The position numbers and the translations under genes were made by a program. A model generated the notes under the pieces. The model was not told the DNA's origin. It saw only the letters and a program-made list of their open reading frames with translations, and ran no database searches. Shown in pieces: positions 1 to 26,299 of a DNA stretch of 32,000 nucleotides. Position 1 is the first letter of the stretch; every line of letters starts with the position of its first letter. The DNA comes from Candidatus Iainarchaeum sp. (GTDB lineage: Archaea; Iainarchaeota; Iainarchaeia; Iainarchaeales; JAZDEL01), in NCBI GenBank assembly GCA_043808785.1, contig JAZDEL010000004.1, positions 150,001 to 182,000 of the forward strand. Direction: 5' to 3'.

Positions 1-85
1 AGGCTTGTATTTATGCGGGTTCACAGAACCCGCGACGTACGCGGCATGCGCGATCGCAAGCGCGCTTCAAGTCCCTCCGGAGGCT
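1..85 (+). tRNA. 3' terminal part of an intron-containing tRNA gene that begins upstream of the window (intron tail 1-65, then T-loop, T-stem and acceptor 3' strand 66-85)
   Basis: 66-72 TTCAAGT (T-loop), 73-77 CCCTC, 78-84 CGGAGGC, 85 T discriminator, then T-run 89-94. It is preceded by the hairpin GCGCG-ATCGCAAG-CGCGC (48-65), whose loop is identical to the hairpin that ends the tRNA-Tyr intron (2344-2361). The 5' part is not visible, so the identity is unknown. Confidence 0.4.
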
Positions 86-119
86 CTCTTTTTTAAATTT
101 TCAGAAAATTTGGCTCTCA

Positions 120-1993: not shown

Positions 1994-2043
1994 ATTAATA
2001 TATTTTAGCAGGGTAGGTTATTAGGAAGGGGAATGGATAATGC

Positions 2044-2106
2044 GTGCAGGCTAGGCGGGCTGAGCCAAAGCGAAGCCCCCCGGATCGTGCACGGATCCTT
2101 CCGTGC
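2044..2106 (+). ncRNA. conserved 63-nt structured leader module abutting tRNA +1 (copy A)
   Basis: Near-identical to 15061-15123: GTGCAGGCTAG, a hairpin with a GAGC..GCGAA loop, then CGGATCGTGCACGGATCCYTCCGTGC. It ends exactly at the tRNA-Tyr 5' end. A/T-rich boxes lie 25-45 nt upstream. Confidence 0.5.
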
Positions 2107-2712: not shown

Positions 2713-3690
2713 ATGGAAATGAAACTCATATTTGCCGCGGCCGCACTCGCGCTTGTCTTGCTTGTTGCTGGCTGCGCGGGCAACGGCGATGCATCCCAGG
2801 GCGGCGGCACGCAGGGCGGGGAGAAAAGCACGATAAAGGTTTCGGGCGCATGGGCCCTTTATCCCCTGATGGTAAAGTGGGGCGAGGAATACAACAAGGT
2901 TAACCCGAATGTGAAGGTGGAAGTTTCGGCAGGCGGCGCGGGAAAGGGAATGACCGATGCGCTTGCAGGGCTTGTTGAAATGGGCATGGTTTCAAGGTCA
3001 ATTTACCCTGAAGAAATCGAAAAGGGCGCATTCTATGTGACGGTTACCGAGGATGCGGTTGTTGCTGTTGTGAACAAGGGCAACCCCGTGCTCAATGAAC
3101 TCCTTGAAAAGGGAATGTCAAGGGAGGGGTTCGAAAAGATTTACATAAGCGGGGAAACAAAAACCTGGGGCGGGGTTATTGGCAAGCCCGAAATTACGGA
3201 CAAGATAAACGTGTACACGCGCTCCGATTCCGCGGGGGCGCCGGAAACATGGGCAGCATATTTCGGAAAAAAACAGGAGAACCTCCTCGGCATCGGCGTT
3301 TACGGAGACCCGGGGCTTTCGGAAGCTGTGAGGAAGGACAGGCTCGGCGTAGGCTACAACAACATAGGTTACGCATATGACATGAAAACAAAGAAGCAAA
3401 TCAGCGGGATTGCGGTTGTGCCTATAGACACAAGCGGGAACGGGAAGATAGATGCGGATGAGATGGTGTATGAAAACATAGACACGCTCACTGATGCTAT
3501 AGGCGCGAACAAATACCCGCATCCGCCTGCAAGGGGCCTGAACCTTGTGGTAAAGGAAAAATTCACCGGCGCGACAAAGGATTTCGTGAAGTGGATTCTC
3601 ACCGACGGCCAGCAATATGTGAAGGAGAGCGGGTATGTGCCTCTGCCCGGTGAATTCGTAAAGGAACAAATCAGGAAGCTCGGGGAGTGA
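2713..3690 (+). CDS. pstS: phosphate ABC transporter substrate-binding lipoprotein PstS
   Basis: Signal peptide with lipobox LLVAGC. PstS-like sequence (SGAWALYPL..., SAGGAGKG, TRSDSAG). SD GGAGG lies 7 nt upstream. First gene of the pstSCAB order. Confidence 0.9.
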   Translation: MEMKLIFAAAALALVLLVAGCAGNGDASQGGGTQGGEKSTIKVSGAWALYPLMVKWGEEYNKVNPNVKVEVSAGGAGKGMTDALAGLVEMGMVSRSIYPEEIEKGAFYVTVTEDAVVAVVNKGNPVLNELLEKGMSREGFEKIYISGETKTWGGVIGKPEITDKINVYTRSDSAGAPETWAAYFGKKQENLLGIGVYGDPGLSEAVRKDRLGVGYNNIGYAYDMKTKKQISGIAVVPIDTSGNGKIDADEMVYENIDTLTDAIGANKYPHPPARGLNLVVKEKFTGATKDFVKWILTDGQQYVKESGYVPLPGEFVKEQIRKLGE

Positions 3691-4617: not shown

Positions 4618-5458
4618 ACGCAGGCTCGAGGAAAATTTCTTCAGGGCGCTGATGCTCTGCTGCACGCTCCTTGTTGTGGGAAGCCTGTTTGCGGTGCTTG
4701 CGGTAATACTCATAAACGGCCTGCCTGCGCTGAGCATTGAAATGCTTACGCAAACCCCGAAGGGCGGATATTATTTGGGGAAAGAGGGCGGGATACTGAA
4801 TGCAATAATCGGCACGATTTATCTTGCAGGCGGGGCAACGGCTGCTGCAATAACGATAAGCCTGCCTGTCGCGCTTTACCTGAACATGCGCCCTGCGAAA
4901 TCAAGGTTCTCGAAATTCGTGAGGAACTCGCTCGACATACTCTGGAGCGTGCCCTCCATAGTTTACGGAATATTCGGATACACAATAATGATTTACATGG
5001 GAATGCGCGCCTCGCTCCTCGGCGGGATAATCGCGTTAACGCTCCTTGAACTGCCGATAATGATAAGGGCGATGGACGAAGTGATGCGGATTGTTCCGAT
5101 GAAACTTATGGAGGCGTCATACGCGCTCGGTGCCACAAAAATCAGGACAGCACTGGATGTGATTGCAAGGCAGGCAATGCCCGGCATAACAATGGCTGTG
5201 ATGCTTGCATTGGGCAGGGCAGCGGGTGATGCTGCATCCGTGCTTTTCACAGCGGGATACAGCGACAATATTCCCTCCTCGCTTTTTGAACCCGTGGCTT
5301 CGCTCCCGCTTGCGGTTTTCTTCCAGTTAGGCACGCCGTTCCCCGAGGTGCAGCAGAGGGCATATGCATCCGCAGCGGTGCTGCTTGTGATGATGCTCCT
5401 GCTGAGCGCGGGTGCGAGGGTTGCGACAAAAAGGTTTTCCGCATATGTTGTGAGGTGA
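4604..5458 (+). CDS. pstA: phosphate ABC transporter permease PstA
   Basis: Permease with MEASYALGATKIRT. Overlaps the pstC end by 14 nt. Confidence 0.9.
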   Translation: MHVDKRRLEENFFRALMLCCTLLVVGSLFAVLAVILINGLPALSIEMLTQTPKGGYYLGKEGGILNAIIGTIYLAGGATAAAITISLPVALYLNMRPAKSRFSKFVRNSLDILWSVPSIVYGIFGYTIMIYMGMRASLLGGIIALTLLELPIMIRAMDEVMRIVPMKLMEASYALGATKIRTALDVIARQAMPGITMAVMLALGRAAGDAASVLFTAGYSDNIPSSLFEPVASLPLAVFFQLGTPFPEVQQRAYASAAVLLVMMLLLSAGARVATKRFSAYVVR

Positions 5459-9029: not shown

Positions 9030-9797
9030 ATGTTTGTCGATTCTCACTGCCACCTTGACTGGTTCGGGGAGGAGGCGGGGAAGGTTCTTGCGCGCGCCGG
9101 GGAAAAAGACGTGCGCGCGGTTGTTTCCTGCGCGACAAATCCGGAATCGATAGCAAAAAACCTCGCGCTCGCGCAAAAATTTTCGCGCGGGAAGTGCGGG
9201 GTTTTTGTTTGCCTTGGCCTGCACCCCTCGGATTTGCTGAGGATGAAGAAGGCGGAAATAGAGGCTGGAATTGAAAGCGTGCGAAAAAACTGCGGCGCGC
9301 GCGGGGTTGTGGGGGCGGGGGAAGTGGGGCTCGATTACAAGCACGCAACCGCGCCCGCCCAAAAGAAAAAACAGCAAAAGGTTTTCGCCGAGTTCATTCA
9401 AATTGCAAAAGAAAAAAATTTGCCATTGGTTGTGCACTCAAGGTTCGCCGAGCGTGAGACAATGGAACTGCTGCGGAAACACCGCGCGGAGCGCGTGGTT
9501 ATGCACTGGTTCACGAATAGTGTGCAGAGCGTGAAGACGGCGGAGGATTTGGGCTTCTTTTACACCGCGGGGCCCGCAATTCTGCATTACGCTGATGCCG
9601 CGAAGGTTGCGGCAAAGATGCGGCTTGAAAACCTGATGCTTGAGACGGATGCGCCCGTGGAGTTCGCGGGGAAGAGGGCGGAACCCTCTTGGATTCCGCG
9701 CTTAGCGGAAAAGGCGGCGGAACTGCACGGAACAAAGGCTGCGGAAATTGAAAAAACAACAACAAAAAACGCAAAGGCGTTTTTTGGCTTTGCTTAG
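9030..9797 (+). CDS. TatD-family metal-dependent hydrolase
   Basis: MFVDSHCHLDW start motif, GEVGLDY, VVHSR, METDAP. Confidence 0.9.
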   Translation: MFVDSHCHLDWFGEEAGKVLARAGEKDVRAVVSCATNPESIAKNLALAQKFSRGKCGVFVCLGLHPSDLLRMKKAEIEAGIESVRKNCGARGVVGAGEVGLDYKHATAPAQKKKQQKVFAEFIQIAKEKNLPLVVHSRFAERETMELLRKHRAERVVMHWFTNSVQSVKTAEDLGFFYTAGPAILHYADAAKVAAKMRLENLMLETDAPVEFAGKRAEPSWIPRLAEKAAELHGTKAAEIEKTTTKNAKAFFGFA

Positions 9798-15027: not shown

Positions 15028-15060
15028 CATTAAAAACCTATTTCCCCCAATTTCTATTCA

Positions 15061-15123
15061 GTGCAGGCTAGTTCGGGTGAGCCCCGAGGCGAACCCGTAC
15101 GGATCGTGCACGGATCCCTCCGT
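15061..15123 (+). ncRNA. conserved 63-nt structured leader module abutting tRNA +1 (copy B)
   Basis: Aligns along its whole length with 2044-2106, including an identical 18-mer CGGATCGTGCACGGATCC. ATTAAAAACC lies about 27 nt upstream of its first G. Confidence 0.5.
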
Positions 15124-15258
15124 GCCCCGGTAGTCTAGCGGTTAGGATGCGGCCCTGTCGGAACTTTTGGGGGCGCGGGGTTCTTGAAACCCCGCTTCCG
15201 AAAAGTTCACAAAAGTTGCGGTGAGGCTGCGACTCGGGTTCGAATCCCGGCCGGGGCG
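15124..15258 (+). tRNA. tRNA-Asp(GUC) with a 63-nt intron at 37/38 (15161-15223)
   Basis: Hand fold of all four arms:
- Acceptor GCCCCGG/CCGGGGC, with G73.
- D-arm GTCT-AGCGGTTA-GGAT.
- Anticodon stem CGGCC/GGCTG, loop CT-GTC-G|A.
- T-arm TCGGG-TTCGAAT-CCCGG. Confidence 0.8.
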
Positions 15259-15383
15259 TTGGCCCATCGAACGAAGCGAGATGGGCCCTGGCCTGATACT
15301 TATTTTCGCAAACCTTTTGGAAGCGGGGGCGAGGCAAACGAGCCCCCGCGCTCAAAAAGGTTTTTCGAATCCCGGCCGGGGCG
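15259..15383 (+). repeat. 105-nt structured insert followed by an exact second copy of the tRNA-Asp 3' end (T54 to discriminator)
   Basis: TTCGAATCCCGGCCGGGGCG occurs at 15239-15258 and again at 15364-15383. The insert contains hairpin GGCCCATC-GAACGAAGCGA-GATGGGCC (15261-15287) and long hairpin 15311-15362. Confidence 0.75.
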
Positions 15384-15456
15384 TAACCTTTCAGCATGGC
15401 GCTTTGCTTTATTAACCCCCAATATTTAAATACCAGTTAGGCGCAATAAAAGGTTC

Positions 15457-18135
15457 ATGCTGCGCGGGTTAACCCTGATAGCCCTTATGGGCGCTGTTGC
15501 ACTTCTTTTCGGGTGCGCGGGGCAGATGGGAACGCCGGAAGAAATCGCGATGCAAAACGCGACTGTGAAGAATTTCATGCAGCAGTACCCGAACGCAACC
15601 GTGCAGATAAACAGGCATGGTGCCGAGGCATTTGCCGGCATAGCGGATGAAATACGGAAGGACTGCCAGAACCCTGACCTGCAGGCAAAGGAATATTACA
15701 AGGTTGTTGTGAACGACGCGGCAAGCGGGGATTACATAAAGGCGTGGATAGATTGGGAGGGCAAGAAACTTGAGTGCATGTACAGGAAGGGGCAGAAGGT
15801 TTCGGAAACCGCGGAAACCGGAAAGGGCACGGGGGAAAAGGCTGCGGAGAAATGCACCGCAGGCTGGGCATGCAAGGATGCGATGCACAAGGCATACAGG
15901 AACGAGGACTGCAATTGGGATGGGGAAAAGTTCTGCGAATTCGGCTGCGGCGCAGGAAGGTGCTTGGCGAGCGATGAGGGAGGCGCAACTGCTGGCGCGG
16001 GAGGCGGAAGCCAGCAGGGCGGGGAAAATGCAGCCGACCTTTGTGCCGGCATTGTTTGCCCGAACACGTGCGAGGGCAGCGTCAGGAAATTCAACGGCAC
16101 GTGCGTCAACGGCGTGTGCAATTATTCCGTAACCGCGTGCGGGCAGGGCTGCGAGAACGGCGCTTGCAAGGGGAACGCGTGCGCGGGCATTGTTTGCCCG
16201 AACACGTGCGAGGGCGATTTCATAAACAAGGGAAAGTGTGTTGAAGGCGCGTGCACATCGGAGCAGATACAGTGCCCTTACGGCTGCGAGAACGGCGGAT
16301 GCAGGGATGCGCCCGCGGAGCAGGCAAACGAGCAGAACCAGGAGCAGAACGCGGGGGAACAGCAGAACCAGGAGCAAAATCAGGAGCAGAACCAGGGACA
16401 GGAGTGCGCGGGAGGCTGCCCTGACAAGTGCGAGGGGAACCTGAGAACGCATGCAGGGCAGTGCGTTAACGGCGAGTGCCAGTATGCGCAGGAGCAGTGC
16501 GCGAACGGATGCGAGAACGGCGTTTGCAAGGCGGCATCGGGCGGGGCAGCGTATTCGTGCGGCTGGACATGGCCGCAGCAGATAAAGGAAAATGGCGTGT
16601 TGAAATGGGCGTGCCCGTCCTCGAGGCCTTACTGCAAGGGAGGCACCACAAACTGCTGCCAGTACAACGCCACGCAGGGGCATTATGATTGTATCGATTG
16701 CGTGCAGGGCGCGTGCACCAATCTGGGCGGAAGTTCTGGCAGTTCCGGCAGCGACCCGTGCGCGAATGTCACGTGCCCGAACAAGTGCGTAAACACGACA
16801 AGGTATTACAACGGCAAGTGCAACAGCAACGGGCAGTGCGATTATTCGCTGCAGGCGTGCCCGAACGGGTGCACTAACGGCACGTGCAACAACGACCCCT
16901 GTGCGGGGGTTAGCTGCCCGAATACGTGCGCCAGCACATACAGCCTTAAATACAACGGGCAGTGCTCGAACGGCGTGTGCCAGTACACGACCAAGGCATG
17001 CTTCTTCGGCTGCTCAAACAACGCGTGCAGCCAGCCGCCGGTGGGCACGATATTCGTGACAAGCACGACATATAATGCGAGTCTTGGCGGGCTTGCCGGG
17101 GCGGACGCGAAATGCACTGCGAGGGCGAGCGCCGGAAGCCTAACCGGCACGTGGAAGGCGCTTATAAGCAACACCGTGACAAACGCCAAGGACAGGATTC
17201 CGGACACCGTACACAAGGGGCTGGACGGCCTGACTATAGCGAACAATGAGGCGGATTTGTTCGACGGCACTATTGCGAACAGAATATACTTTACTGAGAT
17301 GGGCACGGCGTATTCGGGCGCACCGGATTATGTGTGGACCGGATTTGAAACAGGCGGCATAGCCACGGGCGTGAACTGCGGGAACTGGGCAAGCACTTCG
17401 GGAAACACATACCCCGGAAGCGCCACAGGAACCGGCAGCGGCTGGATGAAATCGGGGGTGCAGAGGGCGTGCTCCACAACAGCAAGGCTTTATTGCATAA
17501 AGACCACGGCGGGATGGGACAAGTGCGAGGGCGTTACATGCCCGAACACGTGCGACGGCAGCTACAGGGAATACAACGGGCAGTGCCAGGGAATTAACGG
17601 GATTTGCAAGTACACAGCACAGCCGTGCGCATTCGGGTGCACAAACGGCGCGTGCAACACCGCGCCTGTCGGGGCAATCTTCAGGACAAGCACGACATAT
17701 ACAGGCAGCCTCGGCGGCATGGCGGGGGCGGATATGAAGTGCCAGCAGAGGGCGAATGCGGCAAGCCTTGCAGGAGTATGGAAGGCGGTAATAAGCGACA
17801 GCCTGAAGAACGCGGGCGACAGCGGCAGGATTCCGGATACTGTTTACAAAAGGATGGACGGGCTTGTTATTGCGAACAACAAGGCGGATTTGTTCGACGG
17901 CACTGTTGCGAATGCGCCGAAGCTGAGCGAGAACGGGCTGTATGTCAGCGACCTTGCGTGGACGGGATTCACAACAGGCGGAACTCCCACCGGAGTGAAC
18001 TGCGGCAACTGGCAGAGCACATCGGGCAATGCATACCCCGGGCACGCGTCATATACGGATGCGAAATGGTTTAACTGGAATGTCAGCAAGGCGTGCAGCA
18101 CGGCCGCGGGGCTGTACTGCGTAAGGTATTCCTGA
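15457..18135 (+). CDS. large secreted lipoprotein: PepSY-like N-domain, about 7 tandem 6-Cys modules, N/Q/E linker, two endostatin/DUF1554-like domains
   Basis: Lipobox LLFGC and a leaderless ATG 25 nt after ATATTTAAATAC. Repeated module CxG(I/V)xCPNxCxG(x9-11)CxxGxCxY(x5-6)CxxGCxNGxC. Two copies of IF(V/R)TSTTY..SLGG.AGAD.KC...W(K)A(L/V)IS...VWTGF..GG..TGVNCGNW...ACST...LYC. Confidence 0.9.
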   Translation: MLRGLTLIALMGAVALLFGCAGQMGTPEEIAMQNATVKNFMQQYPNATVQINRHGAEAFAGIADEIRKDCQNPDLQAKEYYKVVVNDAASGDYIKAWIDWEGKKLECMYRKGQKVSETAETGKGTGEKAAEKCTAGWACKDAMHKAYRNEDCNWDGEKFCEFGCGAGRCLASDEGGATAGAGGGSQQGGENAADLCAGIVCPNTCEGSVRKFNGTCVNGVCNYSVTACGQGCENGACKGNACAGIVCPNTCEGDFINKGKCVEGACTSEQIQCPYGCENGGCRDAPAEQANEQNQEQNAGEQQNQEQNQEQNQGQECAGGCPDKCEGNLRTHAGQCVNGECQYAQEQCANGCENGVCKAASGGAAYSCGWTWPQQIKENGVLKWACPSSRPYCKGGTTNCCQYNATQGHYDCIDCVQGACTNLGGSSGSSGSDPCANVTCPNKCVNTTRYYNGKCNSNGQCDYSLQACPNGCTNGTCNNDPCAGVSCPNTCASTYSLKYNGQCSNGVCQYTTKACFFGCSNNACSQPPVGTIFVTSTTYNASLGGLAGADAKCTARASAGSLTGTWKALISNTVTNAKDRIPDTVHKGLDGLTIANNEADLFDGTIANRIYFTEMGTAYSGAPDYVWTGFETGGIATGVNCGNWASTSGNTYPGSATGTGSGWMKSGVQRACSTTARLYCIKTTAGWDKCEGVTCPNTCDGSYREYNGQCQGINGICKYTAQPCAFGCTNGACNTAPVGAIFRTSTTYTGSLGGMAGADMKCQQRANAASLAGVWKAVISDSLKNAGDSGRIPDTVYKRMDGLVIANNKADLFDGTVANAPKLSENGLYVSDLAWTGFTTGGTPTGVNCGNWQSTSGNAYPGHASYTDAKWFNWNVSKACSTAAGLYCVRYS

Positions 18136-19144: not shown

Positions 19145-19243
19145 GGCGCAGGCATGCGCAAAACAGGCGGAACTTTTCGCCTTTGCCGCGGGAAAGCCGA
19201 ACCAGTTAAATATAAATAGTGGTTTTTACCTTAAAGTGTGGAC

Positions 19244-20476
19244 ATGAAAGGCAAAATTACGCCGTTGGGATTTGCAATTGCCGTTGTGCTCCTCTTCGGC
19301 TGCACAATGCAGGTCCAATCCCCCGAGGAACTGATAAATGCCAACGGAACCGCGCAGGCATTCATGGCTGCGCACCCTAACGCGCAGGTGAGTTACACTT
19401 ACATAAGCATGGCGGCATTCGGCAATGTAAGTGCGCAGATTGCCTCCGACTGCAAAGGGGTTGTTGCCCCGGGGGAATTTTACAAGGCGGACATTTACGA
19501 CATGGCGACAGGGCAGAGGCTCGTGATGTGGCTTGACTGGGAAAAGAGGGCGATGCACTGCCTTACTGAGAAACGGGACAAGGGCATAACGCCCTCGGCG
19601 AAGTGCGAACCCGGCTGGAAGTGCATTGACGGCACGCACCGCGCATACAGGAACGAGGACTGCTCATGGAAATACGAAACGTTCTGTGAGTTCGGGTGCG
19701 ATAAGGGAGACTGTGCAAAAGACACGTGCGCAAAGGTTACGTGTGCGGATTACTGTGTAGGGAAGACTCTTTTCAGCAACGGGAAGTGCGCGGAAGGGGC
19801 GTGCACATATGAACGTACGGAGTGCGAAGGCATATGCGAGGGTGCGCAGTGCACGGAGGATAAATGCATAGGGGTCAGTTGCGATGACAAGTGCGACGGA
19901 AGCGTGAGAAAATACGGCGGCGAGTGCGCAAGCAGGGTTTGCTCATATTCCGATGAGAAGTGCGAGCTCGGCTGCTACATGGGGCGGTGCCTGCAGAAGG
20001 GCACAATGTTTGTGACATCGCAGGAATGGAACGGCAATCTCGGCGGGATAAGCGGCGCGGATGCGAAGTGCCAGGCCGCGGCATCGGCGGCAAAGCTCCA
20101 GGGAAAATGGAGGGCGCTGGTAAGCGACAAGGACCACTCGGCAAAAAGCTGGCTGCCGGACAGTGCCTACACAAAACTTGACGGAACCATGGTTGCAAAG
20201 AACAGGGCTGACCTGCTTGACGGCACAATCCTCAGCCCGATAAACATTGACGAATTCGGCAAGGCTGCATCTGGCTTCAGGGTGTGGACAGGCACCTCGA
20301 TAACAGGCACCCCATATGACGGGCCGCTGAGCGGTTACTGCGATAATTGGGTAAGCTGGAATGTCAACAAGGTCGGCGGAGTTGGAAATAAAAACAGCAC
20401 CGACAGCGGCTGGATAAATTACGGCGCCGAACTATGCGAAAGGACCGGAAACCTGTACTGTATGCTTTTTTCTTAG
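19244..20476 (+). CDS. secreted lipoprotein, short paralog of 15457-18135 (N-domain, 2-3 Cys modules, one endostatin/DUF1554-like domain)
   Basis: Lipobox LLFGC. Collinear similarity to the 892-aa protein (HRAYRNEDCSWKYETFCEFGC; MFVTSQEWNGNLGGISGADAKC...WRALVS...VWTGT...YCDNW...LYC). Confidence 0.85.
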   Translation: MKGKITPLGFAIAVVLLFGCTMQVQSPEELINANGTAQAFMAAHPNAQVSYTYISMAAFGNVSAQIASDCKGVVAPGEFYKADIYDMATGQRLVMWLDWEKRAMHCLTEKRDKGITPSAKCEPGWKCIDGTHRAYRNEDCSWKYETFCEFGCDKGDCAKDTCAKVTCADYCVGKTLFSNGKCAEGACTYERTECEGICEGAQCTEDKCIGVSCDDKCDGSVRKYGGECASRVCSYSDEKCELGCYMGRCLQKGTMFVTSQEWNGNLGGISGADAKCQAAASAAKLQGKWRALVSDKDHSAKSWLPDSAYTKLDGTMVAKNRADLLDGTILSPINIDEFGKAASGFRVWTGTSITGTPYDGPLSGYCDNWVSWNVNKVGGVGNKNSTDSGWINYGAELCERTGNLYCMLFS

Positions 20477-25900: not shown

Positions 25901-26041
25901 GAAACAATAAGGCGCACGGTAAATTTAAGCATTTCCGTTTCGGGCAGGCTTTCGGCTTTTTCCGCCAACCAAACTTTTCAGGGAACCCTGCACAGGCTTC
26001 CGCGGGCGCAATAAAAACCTTTTGCCTGCACATTTTATCGT

Positions 26042-26115
26042 GCCCCCGTAGTATAGCCTGGACAGTACTCGGGCCTCCGGAGCCCGTGACCGGGGTTCAA
26101 ATCCCCGCGGGGGCG
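26042..26115 (+). tRNA. tRNA-Arg(CCG), intron-less
   Basis: GCCCCCG-TA-GTAT-AGCCTGGACA-GTAC-T-CGGGC-CTCCGGA-GCCCG-TGAC-CGGGG-TTCAAAT-CCCCG-CGGGGGC-G. AATAAAAACC lies about 27 nt upstream. Confidence 0.95.
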
Positions 26116-26230
26116 CTTCGGAAAAAACAAAACAAAAAACGAACCGACGGTTCGCCGGGTTTTTGGGTTTTGGTTTTTCGGGTTTTGTTTTTCGGATTTA
26201 TTTTTGGTTTTGCCGCTTGTTTTTTTGCCT
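26116..26230 (+). terminator. hairpin plus multiple G-punctuated T-tracts downstream of tRNA-Arg
   Basis: GAACC-GAC-GGTTC hairpin (26141-53), flanked by A-rich (26121-40) and T-rich (26160-26228) runs. T5-T7 tracts are archaeal termination signals. Confidence 0.45.
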
Positions 26231-26299
26231 TAGCCCTTTGCCTAACAAAAAAACGGCATATTTAAATACGGCTGGGCAATAGTATTGCAGGCGTTTTAC

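Follow-up and report, generated by a model that had tools for sequence, protein, structure and literature searches.

The tRNA-Asp gene and its duplicated 3′ end

The window analysed here comprises 32,000 nucleotides (nt) of contig JAZDEL010000004.1 from Candidatus (Ca.) Iainarchaeum sp. and contains, on the plus strand, a tRNA-Asp(GUC) gene that is followed by a second copy of its own 3′ end. A complete tRNA was found at 15124–15258 (Rfam, 45 bits), which displays an insertion within the anticodon loop. Reading by hand revealed tRNA-Asp(GUC) with a 63-nt intron at position 37/38 (15161–15223, +) and with T54 at 15239. The 5′ exon (positions 1–37, 15124–15160, +) is recognized by the Rfam tRNA model at 45 bits as well as by ARAGORN in intron mode, and it is identical in another Ca. 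Iainarchaeum sequence (L001). The 3′ exon (positions 38–73, 15224–15258, +) joins the 5′ strand of the T-stem and completes the Rfam alignment. Splice sites were scored for a bulge-helix-bulge (BHB) motif, which consists of an outer helix h, a 4-bp central helix H, two 3-nt bulges and an inner helix h′. The 63-nt intron gives the top-scoring hBHBh′, with 7 bp in h, CUGU/GCGG as H, the bulges CG^G and UG^A, and AACUUUUG/CAAAAGUU as h′; judged by this predicted fold, it is a normal BHB intron.

The last 20 nt of the 3′ exon, TTCGAATCCCGGCCGGGGCG, are contiguous with the 5′ strand of the T-stem and are present exactly twice in the window, at 15239–15258 (copy 1) and at 15364–15383 (copy 2). Here, 0.01 occurrences are expected and none of 100 shuffled sequences contained two or more matches, so that the exact duplication from T54 onward described in the earlier note holds. 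That note had also given a 20-nt repeat and a structured insert of 105 nt. The structured insert stands, its lengths do not: the T after the discriminator base is common to both copies (15239–15259 and 15364–15384), the repeat is really 21 nt long and the unique insert between the copies therefore measures 104 nt (15260–15363). Copy 2 (15364–15384, +; positions 54–73 plus T) is an orphan and is followed by TAACCTTTC. From this arrangement, copy 1 is identified as the 3′ end that the tRNA-Asp would actually use.

An empty site in a close relative

A syntenic locus was identified on a Logan contig (L008), which was found via the upstream neighbor protein (80% identical). It carries genes for Zip, an SfLAP-like protein and a 148-amino-acid (aa) open reading frame (ORF), followed by tRNA-Asp, and the neighboring proteins are 80–81% identical to those of the window. 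The 148-aa ORF is 81% identical, the promoter together with the leader 91%, and the mature tRNA-Asp agrees at 67 of 72 positions. More distant homologs of the SfLAP-like protein (P0011 and P0012) are not syntenic.

The tRNA-Asp gene of L008 is intron-less and has a single 3′ end, so that both the 37/38 intron and the 104-nt insert of the window are absent. This single end is followed by TAACCTTTC, as is copy 2 of the window, while copy 1 is followed by TTGGCCCAT. The trailer match between copy 2 and L008 amounts to 9/9 positions at a fixed register (chance probability ~4e-6) and comprises the shared T at 15384 and the start of the trailer, AACCTTTC, at 15385–15392 (+). Since the single 3′ end of L008 has the same trailer as copy 2, copy 2 is identified by this comparison as the ancestral tRNA-Asp 3′ end in its ancestral context, displaced 125 bases downstream. 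Copy 1 and the insert would then be a novelty relative to L008, or were precisely lost in L008 by recombination between the repeats. L008 thereby provides the empty (attB-only) site that the earlier note had proposed to look for in related genomes. The direct repeat itself is of the tRNA-terminal kind known from the attachment (att) sites of tyrosine integrases: copy 1 completes the gene, and the orphan copy 2 keeps the native flank. An extra feature of L008 is its T-loop TCCGATT (3323–3329), with a C at the normally invariant U55, which may be genuine or may stem from an assembly error.

A few further DPANN archaea share the tRNA-Asp 5′ exon with the window, and their genes are variable. Among close relatives the number of introns ranges from zero to two. 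L001 and L003 (both Ca. Iainarchaeum) have none, L002 (450–635) has two BHB introns at 37/38 and 68/69 (34 nt), and L005 (9999–10235) has two at 37/38 (~121 nt) and 59/60 (38 nt). In L004 (1187–1293, minus strand) the tRNA-Asp gene is intron-less, and an exact copy of positions 1–15 (a 15-nt repeat) is located 92 nt upstream, separated by a 77-nt insert. In its layout this 5′-end repeat appears as the mirror image of the case in the window. Directly after the 15-nt copy of L004 comes the palindrome AAACCTTTTTCGAAAAGGTTT, similar to the base of hairpin B described below; its right half looks like a B recognition element (BRE)/TATA box pointing at the tRNA.

The structured insert

The 104-nt insert is predicted to fold into two hairpins (−46.5 kcal/mol, z = −4.0). 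Hairpin A, GGCCCATC[GAACGAAGCGA]GATGGGCC, spans 15261–15287, and hairpin B, AAACCTTTT..GCGGGGGC[GAGGCAAACGA]GCCCCCGC..AAAAGGTTT, spans 15310–15363 with an inner stem-loop at 15323–15349 (all +). Both combine an 8-bp G+C-rich stem with an 11-nt loop starting with GA and ending with CGA. Between them lies TTATTTT (15300–15306), a candidate terminator, and copy 1 has no T-tract directly following it; both observations had been made in the earlier note and were read again in the sequence. Because of this T-rich stretch and the cross-species conservation at tRNA-Thr outlined below, a role as trailer, terminator or possibly stable RNA was considered. As a conjecture, the insert might now act as a structured 3′ trailer and terminator region made up of hairpin A, TTATTTT and hairpin B.

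No ORF is present within the 104 nt. The insert starts with TGGCCCATCG... and ends with ...CAAAAAGGTTT, as read from the sequence, and no inverted pair joins these ends, i.e., terminal inverted repeats are not present. Insertion of a miniature inverted-repeat transposable element (MITE), an insertion sequence (IS) or a casposon with target-site duplication was rejected on this ground. A C/D or H/ACA small RNA was rejected as well, since neither a C box nor an ACA box was seen by eye and no Rfam match was obtained even at E up to 5. Also a tandem duplication of the 3′ end plus a trailer hairpin does not fit: the insert and the L008 trailer share only the 7-mers AACCTTT and AAAGGTT, which is not significant.

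A donor was searched for in IMG/VR, where hairpin A, hairpin B and the block of the tRNA-Thr insert gave no match; the tRNA-Asp 20-mer alone matched an unrelated phage tRNA and the end of a high-GC prophage. No integrase was found in or next to the insert, as no recombinase domain was detected in the larger ORFs of the window (Pfam). Furthermore, a tblastn search of the window revealed no gene for a LAGLIDADG endonuclease, the enzyme expected for a homing cassette of the fungal 'mORF' type.

The tRNA-Thr slot

The same architecture is present at the very start of the window (1–94, +), where alignment with a second contig, L009, revealed the last 5 nt of a tRNA-Thr(UGU) (1–5), a structured insert of 60 nt (6–65), an orphan 3′ end TTCAAGTCCCTCCGGAGGCT (66–85) and a T-tract (86–94). 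L009 (Logan SRR22387960) is the orthologous region of the same relative as L008 and was found via the adjacent MgtC gene (84% identical). It contains a complete, intron-less tRNA-Thr(UGU), the 60-nt insert, a second 3′ end starting at T54 and the T-tract. The earlier note had taken positions 1–85 for a partial tRNA with an intron at 53/54, which this alignment contradicts, and no BHB joins the tRNA-Thr copies.

In L009, the orphan differs from the resident tRNA-Thr end at 4 of 20 positions. Here, the resident acceptor stem has acquired a compensatory U6:A67 pair; in the orphan, G67 is retained and a newly acquired A68 has led to a C5·A68 mismatch. The orphan has drifted and mismatches the 5′ strand of the acceptor, and it is therefore not used as an exon; a distal copy maintained as a co-evolving exon was rejected, as this copy fails to track the tRNA. 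The insert itself does not decay freely. Comparing the window with L009, 7 of the 17 pairs of its long hairpin have changed on both sides and none is broken, and a 32-nt block of the insert, the orphan and the T-tract are together ~95% identical between the two species.

Two further states of this slot were found. In L014 (MgtC 65% identical), a T-tract follows directly after tRNA-Thr, 57 nt before MgtC, which constitutes an empty (attB-only) site. In a Diapherotrites population represented by four assemblies (L010–L013; GCA_043820655.1, GCA_018813965.1 and SRR27458547/8), tRNA-Thr is followed by 1059 nt and then by a decayed orphan, GTGCGAAGTCATCCAGAGGCT. The acceptor of this orphan reads CAGAGGC, as in L014 and L009, the resident end reads CAGGAGC, and the orphan is followed by an ancestral T-tract trailer homologous to that of L014. 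The 1059-nt element contains an intact gene, antisense to the tRNA (1265–2326 in L010 and 1339–2400 in L012), for a 353-aa protein with two LAGLIDADG motifs, GAFIGDGC and GIFDTDGNV (Pfam LAGLIDADG_3, 33.6 bits at a cut-off of 22.5), which has weak matches to intein endonuclease domains and PI-PfuI. The reading frame extends ~55 nt into tRNA-Thr on the opposite strand. A native orphan that is closer to the termini of the relatives, a property of mORF-type insertions, is seen in L010–L013; the two tRNA-Asp copies of the window are identical at 21/21 positions. In summary, the slot occurs empty (L014), with the 60-nt insert (window and L009), and with a LAGLIDADG element of ~1.06 kb plus a decayed orphan (L010–L013).

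Hairpin modules shared with leaders and introns

Upstream of the tRNA-Asp gene, a promoter-like A/T-rich box, CATTAAAAACCTATTTCCCC (15028–15047, +), is identical in L008, and a similar box, AATAAAAACCTTTTGCC, is located at −31 to −17 of tRNA-Arg. The box is followed by a conserved, structured pre-tRNA-Asp 5′ leader of ~64 nt (15060–15123, +) with a GA-loop hairpin at 15074–15097, which was recognized by its identity with L008, by its paralogy to the tRNA-Tyr leader and by a covariance model (24.5 bits). The similarity to the paralogous tRNA-Tyr leader (~2043–2106) was reached in 0 of 3000 shuffles. Both leaders of the window (2043–2106 and 15060–15123) contain GTGCAGGCTAG, the GA-loop hairpin and CGGATCGTGCACGGATCC.TCCGT, and abut tRNA position 1; conservation extends to L008 (3204–3270). 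The shared leader might be a 5′-processing or protein-binding element; tRNA-Arg at 26042 is apparently almost without a leader.

The tRNA-Tyr(GUA) gene (2107–2397, +) contains a 218-nt intron at 37/38 (2144–2361), identified by ARAGORN in intron mode and by a BHB of h5/H4/h′1. Neither Rfam (gathering threshold and E up to 5) nor ARAGORN at default settings detected this gene. The T-loop, TGCAACT, has a G at position 55, and the inner helix of the BHB is almost absent. Within the intron, the hairpin at 2311–2333 is homologous to hairpin A of the tRNA-Asp insert (7 of 3000 shuffles), and the last ~26 nt (terminal block ~2335–2359) correspond to the final ~26 nt of the tRNA-Thr insert (1 of 3000 shuffles). 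The similarity of hairpin B to intron 1 is marginal (57 of 2000 shuffles), and hairpins A and B share no similarity in primary sequence.

A covariance model (R1) was built from five GA-loop hairpins, so that these training copies match by construction. It matches the two leaders, the tRNA-Tyr intron (21 bits), both insert hairpins (24.3 bits) and the leader of L008, and nothing else in the window scores above 14.5 bits. The GA-hairpin motif that the earlier note had seen in the insert and in the leaders is real as a motif class (15074–15097, 2057–2078, 2311–2333, 15264–15284 and 15326–15346), restricted in the window to pre-tRNA leaders, one intron and the tRNA-Asp insert. Its loops begin with GA and end with (G)CGA and could form tandem sheared G·A pairs in a K-loop-like manner; no Rfam family matches. 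These similarities place the small inserts in one pool of structured modules together with the leaders and introns of this genome. Such a shared pool is the expectation if introns and inserts have a common mobile-DNA origin, as in the model of PMC3293823.

Interpretation of the locus

Taken together, the locus is most probably a functional tRNA-Asp(GUC) gene that carries the scar of a 3′-end-replacing insertion. Scars of this sort are known from mobile elements at tRNA genes; the one described here is unusually small and structured. Mechanistically, a 125-bp segment, composed of a 21-nt copy of positions 54–73 plus one base and of 104 nt of structured DNA, would have entered between position 53 and the original 3′ end. 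The tRNA-Asp would then be made from the 5′ exon, the spliced 37/38 BHB intron and the proximal 3′ end (copy 1), and copy 2, which keeps the ancestral trailer, would lie outside the mature tRNA. The incoming DNA would supply a replacement terminus, the native terminus would be left behind as an orphan, and the gene would stay intact. This layout would be the outcome of mobile DNA entering a gene that must survive. Of the three possibilities raised in the earlier note, the target-site or att duplication by an integrative or MITE-like element is in substance the one supported, by the empty site in L008, the trailer of copy 2 and the LAGLIDADG element in the tRNA-Thr slot; an integrase, a transposase and terminal inverted repeats were not found with it.

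Two known agents could act in such a way, namely site-specific integrases that cross over in the T-loop, and fungal mORF-type cassettes of homing endonucleases. An integrase of this type would explain the perfect identity over 21 nt, and a homing cassette is documented at tRNA-Thr in L010–L013. For the tRNA-Asp insertion itself, integrase, homing cassette and templated break repair are all candidates. We infer mediation by a mobile element, a reduced, non-autonomous nature of the insert and its role as trailer and terminator. At three loci with small inserts (3′ end of tRNA-Asp, 3′ end of tRNA-Thr and 5′ end of tRNA-Asp in L004) the repeat ends at most one base from the tRNA terminus, and the boundary at T54 is common to the tRNA-Asp duplication of the window and the tRNA-Thr duplications of the window and L009. 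An element selected to carry a functional terminus fits the recurrence of the terminus at three loci better than random repair.

Several points weigh against this interpretation. The insert is only 104 nt long, it lacks a gene and terminal inverted repeats, and no homology to IMG/VR contigs was detected. Scanning of ORFs in the 32-kb window (the larger ones against Pfam) yielded no gene for an integrase, a transposase or an endonuclease. No significant homology links the small inserts to the LAGLIDADG element, and three independent inserts of 60–104 nt are hard to derive by chance decay of kb-sized elements. In a homing cassette, the inserted end is normally distinct from the target, which protects the filled allele against cleavage; the 21/21 identity at tRNA-Asp would fit an att core or a target duplication rather than such a cassette. 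The conservation of the tRNA-Thr insert and orphan together with the compensatory changes suggests selection instead of a neutral scar. Finally, the polarity is not proven from two genomes, as L008 could have lost the insert via recombination between the repeats.

An improbable alternative that dispenses with a mobile element is a double-strand break in the T-loop followed by aberrant repair. Here, synthesis on the sister copy would proceed through the 3′ end, switch template into intron- or leader-like filler and end by re-annealing. This would account for repeats that do not differ from each other and agree with the host tRNA even in the lineage-specific C5:G68 pair, for insert modules that are found in the tRNA-Tyr intron and the tRNA leaders of the same genome, and for the lack of terminal repeats and of a mobility gene among the scanned ORFs of the window. 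Random template switching is, however, not expected to let the repeat end at most one base from the terminus at each of three independent loci, nor does it account for the recurring T54 boundary and for a gene-carrying element in the same tRNA-Thr slot of relatives.

The insertion scar has furthermore to be weighed against the two remaining possibilities of the earlier note, a second, non-canonical intron at 53/54 and alternative 3′ exons, according to which a 125-nt interval is excised and either 3′ end is usable. This is attractive at first sight since excision of any 125-nt interval between the repeats leads to an identical mature sequence, since relatives possess genuine second introns in the same part of tRNA-Asp (68/69 in L002 and 59/60 in L005), and since sequence modules are common to the inserts and a real intron. 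Also, a broad specificity is reported for the epsilon2-type splicing endonucleases of DPANN archaea (PMC5829648). The 21-nt repeat permits 22 pairs of splice sites with the same product, and each of these was scored for a BHB. None of the 22 offsets, including the 15238/15239 and 15363/15364 junctions that the earlier note had singled out, showed a strict hBHBh′ or a relaxed BHB joining the copies. The best offset was 59/60, for which the T-stem supplies h = 5; H reaches 2/4 and h′ 0, compared with 5/4/4 for the real 59/60 intron of L005. A general BHB scan of 15030–15460 ranked the 37/38 intron first (h7/H4/h′8) and revealed nothing that joins the two copies. An in silico construct with copy 1 deleted, in which the 104 nt would represent a former 53/54 intron, contained no BHB, and neither did the mirror construct for the 5′-end repeat of L004. 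Using the same scorer, the positive controls were recovered, namely 68/69 of L002 (H 4/4, h′ 12) and 59/60 of L005 (h5/H4/h′4), as well as the tRNA-Tyr intron of the window (h5/H4/h′1). Since these introns were recovered, the scorer is fair for this lineage.

Co-evolution of a distal exon is uninformative at tRNA-Asp, where the copies are identical; the tRNA-Thr locus of L009 supplies the comparison. There, the distal copy has drifted at 4/20 positions, with a mismatch to the 5′ strand of the acceptor; this strand has itself changed as a compensatory pair with the proximal copy. Furthermore, the tRNA-Asp is complete via copy 1, so that splicing is unneeded, and the empty site in L008 identifies copy 2 as the old end. 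The absence of a BHB and the drifted copy in L009 tell against the second intron and the alternative exon alike, and both are highly improbable. A split or permuted tRNA gene was rejected as well: the adjacent tRNA-Asp is already complete and the window yielded no orphan 5′ half. An assembly artefact, i.e., a mis-join at the shared 21-mer, is extremely improbable: the source is a metagenome-assembled genome (MAG), the exact locus is available from one assembly only and 21 nt is a commonly used smallest k-mer size in assembly, but the repeats enclose a unique, structured sequence that is akin to the pre-tRNA modules of the same genome instead of a copied flank, the tRNA-Thr architecture was recovered for two species in independent assemblies (the NCBI MAG of the window and Logan SRR22387960), and the gene-carrying version is present in four independent assemblies.

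The insertion scar can be extended to a broader idea, which is put forward tentatively and which we consider rather doubtful. Diapherotrites may harbor a family of miniature, non-autonomous 'terminus-replacing' elements, which combine hairpin modules of 60–104 nt with one terminal segment of a tRNA (the 3′ end from T54, or the 5′ end up to position 15). Their spread from one tRNA gene to another would depend on a nuclease or recombinase supplied in trans, and they would draw on the module pool of long introns and leaders. The free-standing LAGLIDADG enzyme seen at tRNA-Thr would be a candidate for this helper. If such a family exists, insertion would be directly tied to intron gain and tRNA gene disruption, and the conserved trailer of hairpin plus orphan would be a selected RNA or a recombination site and not a neutral scar.

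Implications and further features of the window

The disruption of archaeal tRNA genes by introns at odd positions, split genes and orphan fragments represents a long-standing question, and the leading model, the integration of mobile elements in tRNA genes, rests on few examples. Here, a graded series is present at two loci of several close genomes, comprising an empty site, a tiny insert with an orphan, a 1-kb homing-endonuclease element with a decayed orphan and, in the same gene, a newly gained canonical intron. If this series reflects one process, it would be a tractable system to test for a descent of tRNA introns and fragments from insertions of this type. For the annotation of tRNAs in MAGs, it means that apparent 'two 3′ ends' or an 'intron at 53/54' can be an insertion scar.

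Some further features of the window were observed. The motif AAACCTTTTG / CAAAAGGTTT is over-represented, with six matches against 1.1 expected (1099–1109, 5427–5437, 9374–9384, 15310–15320, 15353–15363 and 26015–26025). In several places it lies ~25–30 nt before a gene or tRNA start and may belong to the BRE/TATA of this lineage. Downstream of tRNA-Arg, the region 26117–26240 contains an A-rich stretch, a small hairpin (GAACCGACGGTTC) and ~75 nt of degenerate T/G-rich tandem repeats (TTTTGGTTTTTCGGG...), and probably serves as a strong terminator. The tRNA-Asp locus is closely followed by the genes of two large proteins (15457–18135 and 19238–20476), which are secreted or lipoprotein-like and end in DUF1554 domains; for the DUF1554 protein of 892 aa no homolog above 39% identity was found.

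Comparison with known systems

Integration borders at which tRNA fragments form direct repeats, and introns delivered by elements, have been described (PMC3293823; PMC9897764), among them the model for tRNA-Thr of Caldiarchaeum (Sugahara et al., 2012; PMC3293823) and the cases in Thermococcaceae (PMC9897764). The locus in the window resembles the borders of pNOB8- and SSV-type integrases in that a complete tRNA and a terminal fragment in direct repeat flank the insertion, the orphan keeps the native flank and the site is empty in relatives. Also intron gain is tied to the same remodeling, as the 37/38 intron of the window is likewise absent from L008. In contrast, the insert of the window has 104 nt and no integrase compared with ~2–23 kb, its repeat covers 21 nt from T54 instead of ~44 nt from the anticodon region, and it is built of hairpin modules common to the tRNA introns and leaders of the host.

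Casposons are characterized by terminal inverted repeats, cas1 and polB, and by a target-site duplication of ~14–15 bp. Insertions of casposons by the Cas1 casposase at tRNA 3′ ends with target-site duplication have been reported (PMC5137440; PMC4046053). Similar to these, the tRNA-Asp insertion lies at the 3′ end and is flanked by a duplicated terminal segment, which contains the palindrome CCCGGCCGGG. It differs in its tiny insert without terminal inverted repeats, cas1 and polB, and in a duplication of 21 bp.

For Thermoproteales, non-canonical BHB introns in tRNA genes have reportedly been described, together with an intron 'transposition' among tRNA positions. Like these introns, the insertion described here affects the region of the T-arm in a lineage rich in non-canonical introns, and related modules are present in different tRNAs at different positions. 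Unlike these, no BHB is present at the junctions, the flanking exon is duplicated and the distal copy is not kept as an exon.

The mORFs of fungal mitochondria create gene hybrids by bringing a replacement 3′ end and leaving the native end downstream, as reported for atp6 of Allomyces and for atp6, atp9, cox2 and nad3 of Glomus (PMC3630166). The order of gene core, inserted 3′ end, (endonuclease gene) and downstream native 3′ end is shared, and it is exactly this order that is present at tRNA-Thr of L010–L013, with a LAGLIDADG gene and an ancestral orphan. In contrast to the mitochondrial protein genes, the target is a tRNA gene of a DPANN archaeon. The window furthermore contains no endonuclease gene, its inserted and native ends are identical and would give the filled allele no protection against cleavage, and no homology was detected between its inserts and the LAGLIDADG element. 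A mORF-like layout at an archaeal tRNA gene was not found in the literature searched, which is no proof of its absence.

In conclusion, partial duplications of tRNA genes at the borders of insertions are known (PMC9897764; PMC3293823). What is unusual here is the miniature, gene-less and structured insert, its kinship to introns and leaders, its recurrence and conservation, and the LAGLIDADG version of the same architecture at tRNA-Thr.

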